Shown here piece by piece: positions 57,454 through 64,000 of a stretch of 64,000 nucleotides of DNA. The notes under the pieces are model-generated. The model worked only from the letters and a program-made list of their open reading frames with translations. It did not search any database and was not told the DNA's origin. The position numbers were made by a program, and so were the translations under genes. Origin of the DNA: Cyanobacteria bacterium P01_A01_bin.123 (GTDB lineage: Bacteria; Cyanobacteriota; Cyanobacteriia; Phormidesmidales; Phormidesmidaceae); the NCBI GenBank assembly GCA_039815185.1, contig JBCBZT010000005.1, positions 172,721 through 236,720 on the forward strand, given 5' to 3'. Numbering within the stretch: the stretch's first letter is position 1; each line of letters starts with the position of its first letter.

Positions 57454-58860
57454 TCACCAGTAAAGGTCATGTTCTTGACGTACTGCTGCGGCAAACTGTT
57501 GTCGGAGTGAGCAGGGCAACAACACTTCAACCCTGGGTCGCCAGGCCCGCAATCGCTGATGTACGTTTGGATCATGTTCGCGATAAATCGCGCTGTAGTA
57601 AGCATCTTCAGGCGATCGCTGGTCTAAAATTCGCAATAGTTCTTCCCGCGCTTTACCTGTCAGATGCTGTCGAATCAGCTTTTGGGCTTGGGTATAAGAG
57701 ACTTGCTCGAACGTGTCGTGGCGTTTGGTATCTCGAATGTAGCGATCATTCCACTCTTTATCAAACCGTAACAGCAGCAGCTGGGCAGGCTGGTAGTAGT
57801 CAAATCCCCAGGCTTCTGCCATGCGGGTAGCAATTTCGTCAGGGTGAGGCAGGGTTTGGGTGGTTTGCCGGTCGGCTAAAGTCTTGGGAATGGTCGGGTC
57901 TGTCCAGGCAAGGGGGGTGATTTCCAAAATCCGATCGAGGCGATAATTGCGCCAATCGAGACTGTCAGGAGAGGCATTAGGGACTTGGCCAAACCCGCAG
58001 AGGTAAGGCCCCCGGCGAAAGTAGTAAATACAGACGGGATACACCACGATCTCAATAGCTTGAGTGTGTCCTGCACCTTGATAGCGCAGCCGAACGGGGG
58101 GAGTGGGGGTTTGCTGCCATAGGTCAGAGAGCGCGGCTTGCCAATCATCAACACGATCGAGTTTGTGTTGTGGCACCACGTAGTCTACGTGGACAAAAAA
58201 GCGGCGATCGCCCTGGATTTCTCGCGACAGATTTTCGGCGATCGCGGCCAGGTCAGGCTGGGTGAGAAAGGCACTGGCGTTGGGTGCACCTAGATTTTGC
58301 TGAGATTCGGCTTGGGGGATAATCGGCCAGGTGGTCACTCGATAAAAGCTCTGCCCTTGTTGGGTTAACCAGCTAATACTGGTGAGGATGCGCAGGTCAT
58401 TGTAGAGAGTCCGCCGGGTCATGCTAAACAGGCAGGTATTGAGCAGGGTATCCAGGTTAGAGGGGAGTTGGTCATGGGTTTTGAGGGACTGGGCAAATTG
58501 ACGGATCTGGGTCTGAATTTCAGCTGAGTGGGTTTGGGCGTGGCCCTCCCAATCGGATTGGGTATAGCTGAAAGCGGGGGCAAATAACCAGGCGGCAGTG
58601 ACCTTATTGCAGGGACAGTTTGGATCAAGATGGTTTGGCTTTTTCTCTTCGGTGGGATGGGTGGTTGAGAAAAAGCAATCGCGCCAGTCGGCATAGGTAA
58701 ATGGGTTTGTTAGCCCTAGGGTTTGCCCAGCTTCGCCATAGAGCAGATGTAGCCAAACCCAAAGGCGAATGGATTGCAATAGGTTTTGTTTCAGGGCTCC
58801 CCTGGCCAGCCATTGCAGTAGGGGAACGGTGGGGAGTGCTTGCCAAAGCGGTTCAACCAT
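57454..58860 (-). CDS. CRISPR-associated WYL-domain regulator (TIGR03985-like)
   Basis: RLWVWLHLLYG, VYPVCIYYFRRGPYLCGFG, WRNYRLDRI, AWGFDYY, RLRAWRPRVEVLLP. Confidence 0.85.
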   Translation of the reverse strand: MVEPLWQALPTVPLLQWLARGALKQNLLQSIRLWVWLHLLYGEAGQTLGLTNPFTYADWRDCFFSTTHPTEEKKPNHLDPNCPCNKVTAAWLFAPAFSYTQSDWEGHAQTHSAEIQTQIRQFAQSLKTHDQLPSNLDTLLNTCLFSMTRRTLYNDLRILTSISWLTQQGQSFYRVTTWPIIPQAESQQNLGAPNASAFLTQPDLAAIAENLSREIQGDRRFFVHVDYVVPQHKLDRVDDWQAALSDLWQQTPTPPVRLRYQGAGHTQAIEIVVYPVCIYYFRRGPYLCGFGQVPNASPDSLDWRNYRLDRILEITPLAWTDPTIPKTLADRQTTQTLPHPDEIATRMAEAWGFDYYQPAQLLLLRFDKEWNDRYIRDTKRHDTFEQVSYTQAQKLIRQHLTGKAREELLRILDQRSPEDAYYSAIYREHDPNVHQRLRAWRPRVEVLLPCSLRQQFAAAVRQEHDLYW

Positions 58861-58875
58861 TTGGGATATGAGGGC

Positions 58876-59808
58876 CTATGGGGATTGCTGAATTGCGTTC
58901 AAAATATGCTTGAGCAAAATGTCGGGGATGGTTTGGGTTGCTCCCATCAGCCAGGGGCCAGCCTTGATTTCTAGCCAGGGTGTGGTTTGGAGAACTTCAA
59001 ATTCGTCGGACAAGACGCTATGAATTACGGCTATGGGTTTCAAATGGGGCTGGCAGAATTGGTGCCACACATCGACGGCCTCAGGTAGGCGGCTGATAAT
59101 CATGTAATGGGAGCATTGCTCTACCAGGGGCACTTTTTCGCGTTGGGGTAGCCCCCCGACATCTACCAGTAAGCAATCGACTAAGTTACGCAGATTGGCA
59201 ACTGCGTCGGCATGGGATTGAAAGAAGCCGGGAATGAGTTTGGCGGTTTCGGGGTCTTCATGAATCCGATACTCGTGGTTGCGCACCAAGGCTTCAACAA
59301 AGCTGGGCTGCGCCGTCTCGTAGGTCCAGTTGCCTTCACCGTCCCAGCTGGCCCGATGCAGGTAGATGGTGTCATTCGGTAGCTGAGCCGTCAGGCTGAG
59401 TCGGGTGGCGTTGGACAACACGCTTTTGCCGCTGTTAGGCGGTCCCCCAATTAGGATCGCCGGGCAGGGTTGACGGTTGAGGGTGACGGGGAGCCTGTCG
59501 CCAATGGCGGGTGACTCGACACGGCTGTGGATAACGATGACAGCTTGGCTGCGGGCATCGTAACAGCCGAGCCAGGGAGCCGCTTGGCATTTGTGGATCA
59601 ATGCCCCATAGAGCCAGGTGGGCGATCGCCCGTATAACACCACTTCCCGCGTCAGGTTAATCTCGGGTGGCAATTTGAGGGTAGGCAAACAATCGGGGTG
59701 AACAACTGGGCTATTGAGGGTGATCGCAAGGGTTTGGAGACTGCCGCTGTGGGAGGACAGTAGGGTTAGGTTGAGCTGGACTGGGTGCAAAGCGTTAGAG
59801 GACAGCAT
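58876..59808 (-). CDS. Csx3-like domain fused to P-loop ATPase
   Basis: VVLYGRSPTWLYG...YDAR..V + IGGPPNSGKS, WDGEGNW, LVDVGG; start at ATG 59808 overlapping csx3 stop. Confidence 0.85.
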   Translation of the reverse strand: MLSSNALHPVQLNLTLLSSHSGSLQTLAITLNSPVVHPDCLPTLKLPPEINLTREVVLYGRSPTWLYGALIHKCQAAPWLGCYDARSQAVIVIHSRVESPAIGDRLPVTLNRQPCPAILIGGPPNSGKSVLSNATRLSLTAQLPNDTIYLHRASWDGEGNWTYETAQPSFVEALVRNHEYRIHEDPETAKLIPGFFQSHADAVANLRNLVDCLLVDVGGLPQREKVPLVEQCSHYMIISRLPEAVDVWHQFCQPHLKPIAVIHSVLSDEFEVLQTTPWLEIKAGPWLMGATQTIPDILLKHILNAIQQSP

Positions 59809-60154
59809 CGGGAATTGTGACAATGAGGACTTCACCTTCTGCAACCTGAGGGGAGTGGGTGGCGACGACGACGGCACCGCCAGAATGGGGCACATCGTTG
59901 CCGAAGCGGGGGTCAAAGCAGGCGACCCAAGCGGCGGCATGGCAAGCGTGTACGAGGTAGCCGGAGAGCCAGAGGGGAATTTTGCCTTCAATCACAATCC
60001 CTTGACTCCAAAGGATCGGATCTGGCATTTTCACAGTTTTGAGGGCGTCGGGGGTGAGGATGCCGGTGGGGGTATTGATATGCACATGGAGGTGTTGGTA
60101 GGGCAGACCCGCCTGGGTTTGGTGGGTTGCCAGTCGGAGTTCAACAGCAGTCAT
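59795..60154 (-). CDS. csx3: Csx3/Crn3 ring nuclease
   Basis: GIVIEGKIPLWLSGYLVHACHAAAWVACFDPR...GAVVVATH. Confidence 0.9.
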   Translation of the reverse strand: MTAVELRLATHQTQAGLPYQHLHVHINTPTGILTPDALKTVKMPDPILWSQGIVIEGKIPLWLSGYLVHACHAAAWVACFDPRFGNDVPHSGGAVVVATHSPQVAEGEVLIVTIPDAVL

Positions 60155-60195
60155 GATGGTTATTCAAAGGTTACGGGTAGTGTATCCGGTTATAG

Positions 60196-60236
60196 GAAGT
60201 GGGTGCTTCCAATTTGGGGATGAAGTGGGTGCTTCC
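60196..60236. promoter_or_regulatory. 15-bp direct repeat operator between divergent csx3 and HD genes
   Basis: GAAGTGGGTGCTTCC at 60196-60210 and 60222-60236, each GAAG-N6-CTTC palindromic. Confidence 0.65.
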
Positions 60237-60278
60237 TATTAAGGCTTAGGGTGTAGCAGCTAATGTTTACAGGATGAG

Positions 60279-60875
60279 TTGATGATGCAGCGACTGGTAT
60301 TGACCCACACCTTTGAAAAGGCGCTTGAATATGCGGTGCAGCTGCACAGGCATCAGTGGCGTAAGGTCAATGAAGCGCCCTATGTGTCGCATCTGTTGGC
60401 GGTGGCGGCGCTGGTTTTAGAGGATGGCGGGAGTGAAAGTGAGGCGATCGCGGCTCTGTTTCACGACGCGGTGGAAGACCAGGGGGGTGATTCAACCTTG
60501 GCTCAGATTCGAGTCCGGTTTGGAGAGGCGGTGGCGGAGATTGTACAGGGATGTACTGAACCGCCAAGGGCGCAGTATCCGTCTTGGTATGACCATAAGC
60601 GGGCCTATTTTGAACAGGTCCGCTCGGCTTTGCCTGCGGTGCAGCGGGTGTTATTGGCCGATAAGTTGCACAATGGGCGATCGCTGTTGCGAAATTGGGC
60701 AGAGTTTGGGGAGGCAATGTGGGGGGCGTTTAAGGGCGATCGCGCCCAGGTGCTTTGGTTTTATCAGCAGGCAGCGACGTGTTTTGGGGAGGTAAAGTCG
60801 GGGTGGATGGCGGATGAGTTGGCGCGGGTGGCTGAGCGGTTGGCTCAAATGGACAAGGCTCACGATGCTGTATGA
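60279..60875 (+). CDS. HD-domain phosphohydrolase (RelA/SpoT-HD/Mesh1-like)
   Basis: H..Q.RK...PYVSHL, AALFHDAVED, LADKLHN. Confidence 0.9.
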   Translation: MMMQRLVLTHTFEKALEYAVQLHRHQWRKVNEAPYVSHLLAVAALVLEDGGSESEAIAALFHDAVEDQGGDSTLAQIRVRFGEAVAEIVQGCTEPPRAQYPSWYDHKRAYFEQVRSALPAVQRVLLADKLHNGRSLLRNWAEFGEAMWGAFKGDRAQVLWFYQQAATCFGEVKSGWMADELARVAERLAQMDKAHDAV

Positions 60876-60943
60876 CAGTTTTGGCTTAGTCTAAACTGGA
60901 ACAATATTGAGCGTTGCCTCAACAGACGCGAGGAGATGGGCGG

Positions 60944-61582
60944 ATGTCAGTCAGCTTAACCCGAGCCGATCGAGTGGTGTTACACAACATCAGCTGGCAG
61001 CAGTTTGAAAATCTACTCAATGACTTGGGAGAGCATCGTACCGCTCGTATTGCTTATGACCAGGGCGCTTTAGAGATTATGACGCCGCTACCCGAGCATG
61101 AGTATTTTAAGGAGACGATTGGTGATGCGATCAAAGATATGGCCGAGGTGCTGAATCTAGATTACGAAAGCTATGGGTCTACCACCTGGCGGCGGGAGGT
61201 GAGACAAGCGGGGCTTGAACCAGACAATTGTTTTTACTTTCAGAACGAGGCTTTGGTTCGTGGCAAACTTGACTTTGATCTCGATCGCGATCCGCCCCCT
61301 GATTTAGCCCTCGAAATTGATGTAACGAGTAAGTCATTGGATCGCTTTCCAATTTATGCCCGTTTAGGCATTCCTGAACTTTGGTGCTACGACGATGGCT
61401 TGTTGAAGATTTATCGCCTCCAGCAGGAGCAGTACGTGCAAGCTGAGGAGAGCGATATCTTTCCGTCGTTGGCAATTCAAGGGTTGCCCCGCCTGATTGA
61501 GGCATATCGCAATCAAGGGAGATTGGCTTTGCGGCGTGCTGTGCGGCAGTGGGCCACTGAACAGATCACCCCAAAGGGCTAA
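60944..61582 (+). CDS. Uma2 family endonuclease
   Basis: ISWQQFE, EPDNCFY, PPPDLALEIDVTS, YARLGIPELW. Confidence 0.93.
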   Translation: MSVSLTRADRVVLHNISWQQFENLLNDLGEHRTARIAYDQGALEIMTPLPEHEYFKETIGDAIKDMAEVLNLDYESYGSTTWRREVRQAGLEPDNCFYFQNEALVRGKLDFDLDRDPPPDLALEIDVTSKSLDRFPIYARLGIPELWCYDDGLLKIYRLQQEQYVQAEESDIFPSLAIQGLPRLIEAYRNQGRLALRRAVRQWATEQITPKG

Positions 61583-61630
61583 CGGCTGCGCTCTAATACA
61601 CTCCGATGGTTGTCTTTGGCGGAGGCAAGG

Positions 61631-62380
61631 TTAGACCGTGTCTGGATCAACACCAAGCTGTCTGAGGCGTTCGGCGAGGCGTTCGGCTTTAGTGGGTAGC
61701 CAGTTGTCTGCTGTGTCGTACCAGCGTAGCCAGGTGCGGGGGATGTCGCGATAGTCGCCCTGCCAAAGCCCGATGCCGATGGCGAGTTTGGGTAACCAAA
61801 GGCGGGATGTTTCGAGAGACAGTTCTTCGTATTCGCCAGAGACTAGGGTAAAGCCCCGCAGTTGGTTGCTGTAGCGGTTGTAGGTGATGTAGTAGGGGAC
61901 CCGCAAAAGATTTTGGTAAACCTGCCATTTAGTGGGCGGTTGGTCGGGAGCGGGGACGGTTTGGCCGAGGTCTTCGGCTTCGGTGCCGGGTGAGAGCAAT
62001 TCGACGATGATGGCGGGGCTGATCCCTTCTTGCCATAGGACGTAGCTGAGGCGCAGGTCGGTTTCTTCGTATAGGCGGGGAACGCCTGGGACGGCAAACC
62101 AATCGGGGCGTTTATACCAGCGGGGATGGCGGACGTCGTAATACAGGTTGAGGTCACCGGCGGTGAAGATTTGGTTGGTGGCGTAGTCTGCTAGGCGAAA
62201 GGTTTCGCTCAGCAGTTGGGGTTGGAGGTAATGAAATAAGTCTCGCGACAGGCTAGCGCCAACGTCTGGCAACCCAGGCTCCTCTAGCTGTTCGCTGGGC
62301 AGATCATACATGGTTGGCAGTGTTTCTTTGGGGGGGAGCGGCGGGTCGGCCTGGGTGATGTGGATGGGCTGGGAAACCAT
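61631..62380 (-). CDS. Uma2 family endonuclease with in-frame 8-aa insertion
   Basis: LPTMYDLPSE..EPGLPD, RPDWFAV, VELLSPGT. Confidence 0.9.
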   Translation of the reverse strand: MVSQPIHITQADPPLPPKETLPTMYDLPSEQLEEPGLPDVGASLSRDLFHYLQPQLLSETFRLADYATNQIFTAGDLNLYYDVRHPRWYKRPDWFAVPGVPRLYEETDLRLSYVLWQEGISPAIIVELLSPGTEAEDLGQTVPAPDQPPTKWQVYQNLLRVPYYITYNRYSNQLRGFTLVSGEYEELSLETSRLWLPKLAIGIGLWQGDYRDIPRTWLRWYDTADNWLPTKAERLAERLRQLGVDPDTV

Positions 62381-62439
62381 GGGGATGATCGGTGGGGAGG
62401 TTAGTTCAATTGTAGTCAGGCGTTATTCAGAGTGAACCT

Positions 62440-62760
62440 TTGGTTCGGGGTCGAGAGAGTCTTGATTTGAATGCGGGGGATCCGCCGCCTGATTTGGTAA
62501 TTGAGATTGACATCAGTACGAATTCGCTGGATAAGCGTCGTTTGTATGCCAATTTGGCGGTTAGGGAGTTTTGGCGGTTTGATGGTAGCGCTATTTCTTT
62601 TTTTGAACTTGAAGGGTCTGGTTATGCGCTTGTAGATCGCAGTTCTACGTTTCCGTGGTTTCCGGCTGATAAGCTTTCTGAGTTGTTGGAGGCGCGTTTG
62701 AGGTTGGGTGAAACGCAGACGCTTAGGCAGTTTCGGGATTGGGTTAGGGAGCAGATTTAA
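62440..62760 (+). pseudogene. 5'-truncated Uma2 family gene
   Basis: DPPPDLVIEIDIST...YANLAVREFW corresponds to only the C-terminal half of 60944-61582. Confidence 0.75.
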
Positions 62761-62785
62761 GAGCACGAAGGATGTTTCGTTGAGT

Positions 62786-62818
62786 AGAACCCAGAGTTTT
62801 TGAAAAACTCTGGGTTCT
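62786..62818. terminator. Palindromic REP-like hairpin / probable bidirectional terminator at the array trailer
   Basis: AGAACCCAGAGTTTTT-G-AAAAACTCTGGGTTCT, perfect 16-bp arms. Confidence 0.65.
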
Positions 62819-62881
62819 TTTGTAGTGGCAGCTAGAATTTAGCTCTTGTTTGATGGTTTGAGTAGATGTTATTGATTCAGT

Positions 62882-64000
62882 GTTTCCAACTATTTCAAAT
62901 TGAGCCCTTTGTTGGGCAAATCCCAGAATCTACTTATGCTTCACATAGCCTATTTCGAGTTTCCAACTATTCCGAAATTAACCCTTCGGTAGGCTGCGAA
63001 ATTCCCGGCTGGCAGATCTTTCCTCTGTGCAAGTTTCCAACTATTCCGAAATTAACCCTTCGGTAGGCGTATACAGCCTTCGCAATGGTGCCCACCAACG
63101 AAGCCAAGTTTCCAACTATTCCGAAATTAACCCTTCGGTAGGTTTCTTTTTTTGCTTACTCGGGAGGCTACCAAGGGTCGCGTTTCCAACTATTCCGAAA
63201 TTAACCCTTCGGTAGGACAATCCTTGCCCGCTTGCCGTCCCTTAATTACGGGAAGTTTCCAACTATTCCGAAATTAACCCTTCGGTAGGAACTTCATGGG
63301 CAACCCCAGCGGCTCGGGACTGGAAAAGCAGGTTTCCAACTATTCCGAAATTAACCCTTCGGTAGGTTTATTTATTTTGATTTGTGGCGCGATCGCTTGG
63401 CCAGGAATGCAGGTTTCCAACTATTCCGAAATTAACCCTTCGGTAGGTTGTCTAATGAAATTCAGAATCTTGCCGAATCAGGTCGTGTTTCCAACTATTC
63501 CGAAGTCATTACCTCCGGCAAAGCCGGAGGCTTGAAAAAAGCCGCTCAAAGCGGCAAGTGGGATGAGAAGCAAACATCCCGATCTGTCCGAACCTAAGAG
63601 CTTCTATCCTGTGAGACTTTTAGACGTCGTAACTCCGAACCTTGTGGAATTGTCAAACTTGACTAGTCCCCCAGCAGAGCTGGGGGTTTACGACGATTAA
63701 TTAACCCTTCGGTAGGCGCGATCGCGACATAGGGACAAACGGGTACTACGAGGGGTTTCCAACTATTCCGAAATTAACCCTTCGGTAGGACTTTTTTTCG
63801 CTCTCCAATATAGACGCGGAGTGCGATCAAGTTTCCAACTATTCCGAAATTAACCCTTCGGTAGGATTGAATCTGGGCCAAATCCTAAGCTTTTCTGGAG
63901 GGAAAGTTTCCAACTATTCCGAAATTAACCCTTCGGTAGGCACTTCGACCTGAGATAAAACTTTGGTAAACTGCTTCAATAGTTTCCAACTATTCCGAAA
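62882..64000 (-). CRISPR. CRISPR array, 35-bp repeat (transcribed sense probably CCTACCGAAGGGTTAATTTCGGAATAGTTGGAAAC), type III-like, continues beyond window
   Basis: Repeats GTTTCCAACTATTCCGAAATTAACCCTTCGGTAGG at 62882 (degenerate), 62959, 63033, 63108, 63182, 63255, 63332, 63413, 63487 (split), 63755, 63831, 63906, 63982 (partial); 12 spacers of 38-46 bp; degenerate left copy and GAAAC end imply minus-strand transcription. Confidence 0.97.
63505..63699 (-). mobile_element. 195-bp non-autonomous IS200/IS605-type element inserted in a CRISPR repeat
   Basis: Subterminal hairpins CCTCCGGC-AAA-GCCGGAGG and CCCCCAGC-AGA-GCTGGGGG; no target duplication; flanks rejoin to an exact repeat. Confidence 0.85.

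Follow-up and report, generated by a model that had tools for sequence, protein, structure and literature searches.

A transposase-less IS200-type insert (PATE) divides a repeat near the trailer end of a cyanobacterial type III-B CRISPR array

Insertions of IS elements and MITEs that split CRISPR arrays are already published. In Anabaena sp. PCC 7120 a 134-nt MITE separates CR_6 and CR_7 (bioRxiv 10.1101/2020.04.14.041012, citing Hou et al. 2019), in Mycobacterium tuberculosis IS6110 cuts a direct repeat into two halves (PMC7708916), and a review describes such insertions in the arrays of Sulfolobales as rare (PMC4390879). The insert described here, which is a further PATE, lies in a 64,000-nucleotide stretch of DNA from Cyanobacteria bacterium P01_A01_bin.123 (hereafter the window). 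Like the Anabaena MITE, it is a miniature non-autonomous element that divides a cyanobacterial CRISPR array; however, that MITE is described as one of the inverted-repeat type, the arrays of that strain are discussed as Cas6 substrates, and the account of it leaves unstated whether it lies in a repeat or a spacer (10.1101/2020.04.14.041012). With IS6110 it shares the division of a repeat into two halves, but IS6110 is autonomous, recurs in its host (we find a single case here), and makes a 3-5-bp target duplication, so that it leaves no exact repeat (PMC7708916). A literature search of titles and abstract openings found no prior description of a PATE in a CRISPR repeat.

The insert comprises 195 bp (63505-63699) and divides a 35-nt CRISPR repeat into 18 and 17 nt. 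This repeat is the ninth from the degenerate end of the array and the 64th of 72 from the leader. Its 5′ (upstream) half, ATTAACCCTTCGGTAGG, occupies 63700-63716 and its 3′ (downstream) half, GTTTCCAACTATTCCGAA, 63487-63504; like all features of the array and element given below, they are read on the minus strand. Joined, the two halves give the exact 35-nt repeat with no duplicated base, so there is no target duplication. An earlier reading of the window, made from the sequence only, had described a 195-bp insert in the ninth repeat with two subterminal hairpins, no target duplication, no transposase, and a break at the stem/loop border of the CCGAA..TTCGG hairpin, and in all these points, including the coordinates, it was exact. 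There is an 8-bp subterminal hairpin at each end, and the single-stranded DNA fold of the insert has z = −5.84 (none of 200 shuffles is equally stable). Between the hairpins the element strand has no ATG-to-stop ORF; a 45-codon frame on the opposite strand is open in only two of five aligned copies. The break falls at the border of the loop and the 3′ arm of the stem. From the sequence of the locus alone, the right junction is ambiguous by one base, but relatives fix it and thereby set the end of the element at TGAC.

The contig ends 284 bases away, within a repeat, and contamination of the assembly is estimated at 6%; both would favor an assembly artefact at the contig end. However, a separately assembled 342-nt Logan contig from run X1 covers 63420-63761 with no differences and bridges both junctions and both flanking spacers. 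This contig is unbranched and has a depth of 30, compared with 38-41 for its neighbors; since X1 may be the source sample, it is a guard against mis-assembly rather than independent confirmation. The junction also falls exactly at the target and end motifs of the element family, and we regard an artefact as very improbable.

Cleavage sites in IS608 base-pair with a guide tetranucleotide located at the 5′ foot of each hairpin: base one of the guide pairs with base two of the site and base two with base one, and base three stays unpaired (PMC5934647, PMC3201880); from the pairs TTAC/AAAG and TCAA/GAAT given in these papers, we infer that the fourth base pairs with the fourth. Both ends of the insert fit this code. 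On the left, the guide TAAA (63687-63690), at the 5′ foot of an 8-bp hairpin with a 3-nt loop (63668-63686) that is a predicted TnpA binding site, is predicted to pair with the target and left cleavage site TAAT (63700-63703), which is kept in the upstream half of the repeat. On the right, the guide CAAG (63531-63534), next to the right hairpin (63512-63530), is predicted to pair with the right cleavage site TGAC (63505-63508), the last four bases of the element.

The same rule is apparent across the relatives. Among 29 distinct right ends, 27 obey it, against a mean of 9.7 and a maximum of 17 in 2000 shuffles of the guides, a difference inflated by kin that are not independent. Guide and site covary in three classes (CAAG/TGnC in 13 ends, AAAG/TTnC in eight, and TAAG/TAnC in five); one further end has the guide AAAA, and two are misses. 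A tabulation of the 5′ flanks, suggested by the sequence-only reading as a check, shows TAAT in place at 14 of 21 left ends and agreement with the rule at 16 of 21, including a switch to TAAG/TAAC. Five left ends depart from it, among them the copy on contig C31 described below. Insertion 3′ of an AT-rich motif had been proposed, and the insert does lie directly 3′ of TAAT; the motif itself had been given as TTAAT. In runs X2 and X3, the sibling contigs for the most part match only as far as 63703, so the target, read by the guide TAAA, is corrected to the four bases TAAT.

In the host assembly (133 contigs) the element is single-copy: BLAST of the insert returns one copy and, on C31, two matches to its ends that delimit a 636-bp element (C31:130442-131077) encoding a 144-aa Y1 transposase, which matches the IS200/IS605 transposase family (NF033573, E 1e-42) and the IS608 TnpA structures (E 2.5e-17), with the HVH motif and the Tyr aligned. 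The right hairpin of the C31 element is identical to that of the insert, and its left hairpin is off by one base. Its left guide (G000:C31:130451-130454) reads TAAC where the family has TAAA. Since TAAC mismatches its own TAAT target, the C31 element may be a decaying copy, and it may supply transposase yet excise poorly. The middle ∼90 nt of the insert have no other match in the host genome, the C31 element included, so its direct parent was not found and the TnpA that mobilizes it may be another. Within the insert, the central core (63555-63645) is 70-81% conserved across genera (loci L006, L007, L008, and L010), with nothing alike in the C31 element. Thus the search for siblings and for a tnpA parent, also suggested beforehand, returned siblings and a tnpA relative but no direct parent in the host genome.

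Matches to the element occur in 11 of 61 genomes and in 28 of 401 genomes (the host counted in each, and two candidates scored per genome in the set of 401). Both ends are seen at 15 loci among L001-L050: two minis of 175-176 nt and 13 elements of 531-617 nt, 10 of which carry a full-length tnpA-type ORF of 143-145 aa. None of the 15 has room for tnpB. Full- or near-full-length minis with 70-81% identity and a common central core are present in four of 60 relatives, and none of their loci has a CRISPR array. One family member of ∼1 kb (L033:537-1554, G299:C22) lacks tnpA and carries on the opposite strand a passenger ORF of 252 codons for which neither Pfam nor PADLOC gave a match; it is a candidate transporter IS. 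The Latescibacterota MAG OZ240241.1 (L053 and others) holds dozens of near-identical element copies with the same right hairpin, the CAAG guide, and the TGAC end.

The insert has a subterminal palindrome at either end; it lacks terminal inverted repeats, a target duplication, and a transposase gene; and its ends are related to Y1 tnpA elements (C31 and nine loci with a full-length tnpA-type ORF). On sequence grounds it is a PATE, derived from a tnpA-only IS200-type family and devoid of genes. Its ends, its guide code, and its tnpA relatives bear out the original assignment to an IS200/IS605-type miniature on the minus strand. A classical MITE was rejected, as the insert has neither terminal inverted repeats nor a target duplication. 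In run X3, 63504-63703 is present in other flanks with a single difference, at 63604, and run X2 has a partial copy with three differences, which indicates recent mobility of the element. Searches with the mini-core patterns in metagenome contigs and viral contigs found none, and a plasmid search gave left-end matches only, in four Leptolyngbya records.

The geometry of the right end, which abuts 18 nt of repeat, and the presence of two TnpB-family matches in the genome would be compatible with an omega-RNA cassette in which the flanking half-repeat guides TnpB or IscB against CRISPR repeats. This has hardly any probability in our view: An Rfam search at E ≤ 1 gave one chance match (E 0.74); the family members that could be sized are 0.6-kb tnpA-only elements, minis, and the single 1-kb element, whose passenger ORF is unrelated; and neither TnpB locus has a family hairpin close by or matches the insert by BLAST. 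An OMEGA element was rejected, as neither a scaffold nor a cognate nuclease family could be tied to the insert.

The last base of the window is the end of contig C82, and the end of contig C130 overlaps it by 47 nt. C130 carries 60 further repeats together with the leader and the cas genes, and their position there implies that pre-crRNA is transcribed on the minus strand of the window, which is the element strand. The array totals 72 repeats, and split repeat 64 lies ∼4.9 kb from the first. Upstream of the insert, the window part of the array (63717-64000) continues on C130; downstream, the trailer block (62882-63486) consists of eight spacers, seven intact repeats, and a degenerate terminal repeat, in agreement with the eight trailer-side spacers counted in the sequence-only reading. 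Against the host genome, no spacer matches over a long stretch (21 of 46 nt at best), so there is no autoimmunity to silence. No phage match was found for the trailer spacers.

That reading had also seen the array as a row of targets, with the motif in every intact repeat. A 36-nt variant lacking TAAT makes up repeats 1-55; after a hybrid at position 56, repeats 57-71 belong to the 35-nt variant of the window, and the degenerate terminal repeat (72) resembles the leader-side variant and again lacks TAAT. TAAT occurs in only 16 of the 72 repeats because the array runs on into C130 with a different variant; it is missing from the 55 leader-side repeats and the terminal one, so the description as a row of targets does not apply to the whole array. 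The genome holds 50,131 TAAT sites on its two strands. The array (window 62882-64000 and G000:C130:50077-54698) is a mosaic of leader-side block, hybrid, 35-nt block, and leader-like terminal repeat, which suggests that the 35-nt block was brought in by recombination between related arrays.

Our preferred reading, to which we assign a probability of roughly 85%, is that a PATE of a tnpA-only IS200-type family, mobilized in single-stranded form by a trans-acting Y1 transposase, inserted 3′ of TAAT in repeat 64, in a nearly neutral trailer. TnpA would bind the two hairpins of the mini, the guides TAAA and CAAG would select TAAT and TGAC, and the excised circle would integrate and leave no duplication. 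That the old trailer end is nearly neutral is the likely reason why the insert persists.

The cas module beside the array is of type III-B, with Cas10/Cmr2 bearing GGDD, Cmr3, Cmr4, Cmr5, and Cmr6. Adjacent to cas10, C130 also has a gene for a transmembrane CARF protein. A search of the host genome with the profiles PF10040 and TIGR01877 found no Cas6; judged by its gene content, the system is a type III-B variant without Cas6. The neighboring RT-cas1 gene (G000:C130:48920-49581; L025:14222-14883) appears internally deleted: what remains is a 101-aa frame from the RT N terminus that continues into the last 97 aa of Cas1, so spacer acquisition in cis has probably been lost. C129 carries another Cas1 gene, which is intact and encodes a 553-aa protein with an N-terminal extension (likely Cas4). 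Beyond the trailer, the window holds a perfect 16-bp inverted repeat (62786-62818), terminator-like and possibly the terminator of the array; three Uma2 (PF05685) genes or fragments (60914-62760); and, at 57454-60875, a TIGR03985 gene, two genes for Csx3/Crn3 ring nucleases (one of which has an additional domain at its C terminus), and a gene with an HD domain.

The closest described counterpart of this locus is the type III-Bv system CRISPR3 of Synechocystis PCC 6803 (pSYSA). As described there, the two share the order cas10, cmr3, cmr4, small subunit, and large RAMP, a divergent cas1-cas2 followed by the array, the lack of cas6, nearby TIGR03985 and HD genes, and a repeat ending in GGAAAC (PMC12464536). 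However, the proteins are only 20-33% identical over long alignments, the repeat differs, and the Cas10 of the host is shorter (631 aa compared with 979 aa).

On the pre-crRNA strand, the insert carries a site resembling an intrinsic terminator (63535-63555), a hairpin of 6 bp (five G-C, −8.7 kcal/mol) followed by U6. This agrees with the earlier suggestion that the insert may terminate transcription. The site is a consensus match only: The number of such sites, four compared with 2.0 on average in shuffles (SD 1.7), is not beyond chance. The tract following the hairpin has six T in 8 nt, the most among the 24 right ends listed. In Salmonella, the terminator-bearing IS200 was found as a polar insertion (PMC4513863). 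It was also suggested that a TTGACA in the insert allows re-initiation; the hexamer is present (63656-63651; common to the family, with no matching −10 box here), but a promoter scan of 62700-64000 found no promoter-like sites and so leaves it without a partner, and re-initiation is not supported. We consider polar termination a likelier effect than blocked processing. The hairpin and U6 would partly stop transcription ∼4.9 kb from the first repeat, and the chance that partial termination lowers the crRNAs of the last eight spacers seems to us slightly better than even. Such damping of the last eight guides is likely a chance side effect.

Blocked processing at repeat 64 is uncertain because no Cas6 was found and the 13-nt handle is preserved. 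In the III-Bv system of Synechocystis, AU-rich single-stranded RNA downstream of the stem is cut by RNase E, which yields 13-14-nt handles (PMC12464536). Here, 13 nt follow the stem of the repeat, and this tail is intact downstream of the insert. Folded without spacers, the split repeat keeps its helix at long range; folded with both spacers, its native stem has a probability of 0.0, although intact repeats themselves range from 0.0 to 0.98.

These data bear on the possibility that the PATE has no measurable effect, either because trailer crRNAs are already scarce or because readthrough occurs and the repeat is still cut, 13-14 nt from its end, by an RNase of the host. The distance of the insert from the first repeat, the intact tail in a host where no Cas6 was found, and the downstream cut by RNase E in Synechocystis (PMC12464536) argue for such an inert insert, and the right hairpin of the element or the long-range helix could replace the stem. 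On the other hand, the hairpin and U6 lie in sense, the native stem is lost in the split repeat when spacers are included, and RNase E enters here by analogy with a system whose Cmr proteins and repeat are as divergent as given above. We hold this account tentatively, at somewhat under an even chance.

The sequence-only reading had gone further and proposed a reversible switch, in which the element is kept or toggled and precise excision restores repeat 64 and re-activates the eight spacers. Several features are in keeping with this. The genome has an intact tnpA gene, Y1 excision precisely reseals the donor (PMC5934647), and the element lies in sense, with its terminator-like site and the T-richest tract among the right ends listed. 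With the guide/cleavage codes intact at both ends, the chemistry would allow exact excision; we predict it to be rare and unregulated. However, the X3 copy at an unrelated site, which differs only at 63604, has the same U tract, so the tract is not an adaptation to the array. The search for an empty repeat found no joint that skips the insert in the contigs of runs X1, X2, X3, and X5 (four of the five runs listed), although contigs drop rare variants. IS200 is reported to transpose at very low frequency (PMC4513863), and the spacers, as noted, provide no autoimmunity to silence.

Recurrence in other arrays is also lacking. The pattern of the right hairpin followed by TKGAAAC occurs in the host genome only (one of 401 genomes; same orientation and repeats ending in TKGAAAC), and, among the matches listed, none of 119 loci lies in a CRISPR array (k-mer test on loci from a scan likewise confined to one orientation and to repeats ending in TKGAAAC; 39 loci with shorter flanks). 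In the pattern scan of genome contigs, one MAG dominates the listed matches. The sequence TTGGAAAC near the sibling in genome G011 lies outside any array. A 1.9-kb gap in the TAAT-bearing array of genome G413 was ruled out as an IS: It holds two unrelated genes after a degenerate repeat. A gene resembling Uma2 (PF05685) is present in this gap. Taken with the single copy, the terminator-like site shared with the unrelated-site copy, and the failure to find an empty-site contig, the reversible switch has no positive evidence, and we judge it highly unlikely. Equally doubtful is its specific form, in which stress-induced C31 TnpA would remove the mini in a subpopulation, restore repeat 64, and re-activate the eight spacers of the oldest block. 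Frequent, regulated excision would, if true, amount to a novel means of gating CRISPR memory; nothing we found points there.

The interest of the locus lies elsewhere. The insert is a clean natural PATE, with target and end motifs that the base-pairing code of IS608 makes legible, and, as a CRISPR-repeat insertion of the Y1 type, it could in principle revert scarlessly. The locus is suited to tests of trans-mobilization and of whether the repeat of a Cas6-less type III-B system needs its stem or only its 3′ tail.

Among described elements, those of the IS608/IS200 group share with the insert the subterminal hairpins, the 4-nt guides at the 5′ foot that select the cleavage sites, a target kept at the left flank, and a terminator-like structure, and the Y1 HUH transposase is common to this group and the autonomous relative of the insert (PMC5934647, PMC3201880, PMC4513863). 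The insert differs from IS608 in its TAAT target and TGAC end (TTAC and TCAA in IS608) and in carrying neither tnpA nor tnpB (PMC5934647, PMC3201880), and its terminator-like site is near the right end, whereas that of the Salmonella IS200 is at the left end (PMC4513863). As characterized in Haloquadratum walsbyi, PATEs likewise have near-terminal palindromes, no terminal inverted repeats, no target duplication, IS605-type-related ends, and a short targeting oligonucleotide, and are too short for a transposase (PMC3119063). Unlike those PATEs, which number dozens per genome, the insert is cyanobacterial, has tnpA-only kin, and is present in one copy, within a CRISPR repeat.
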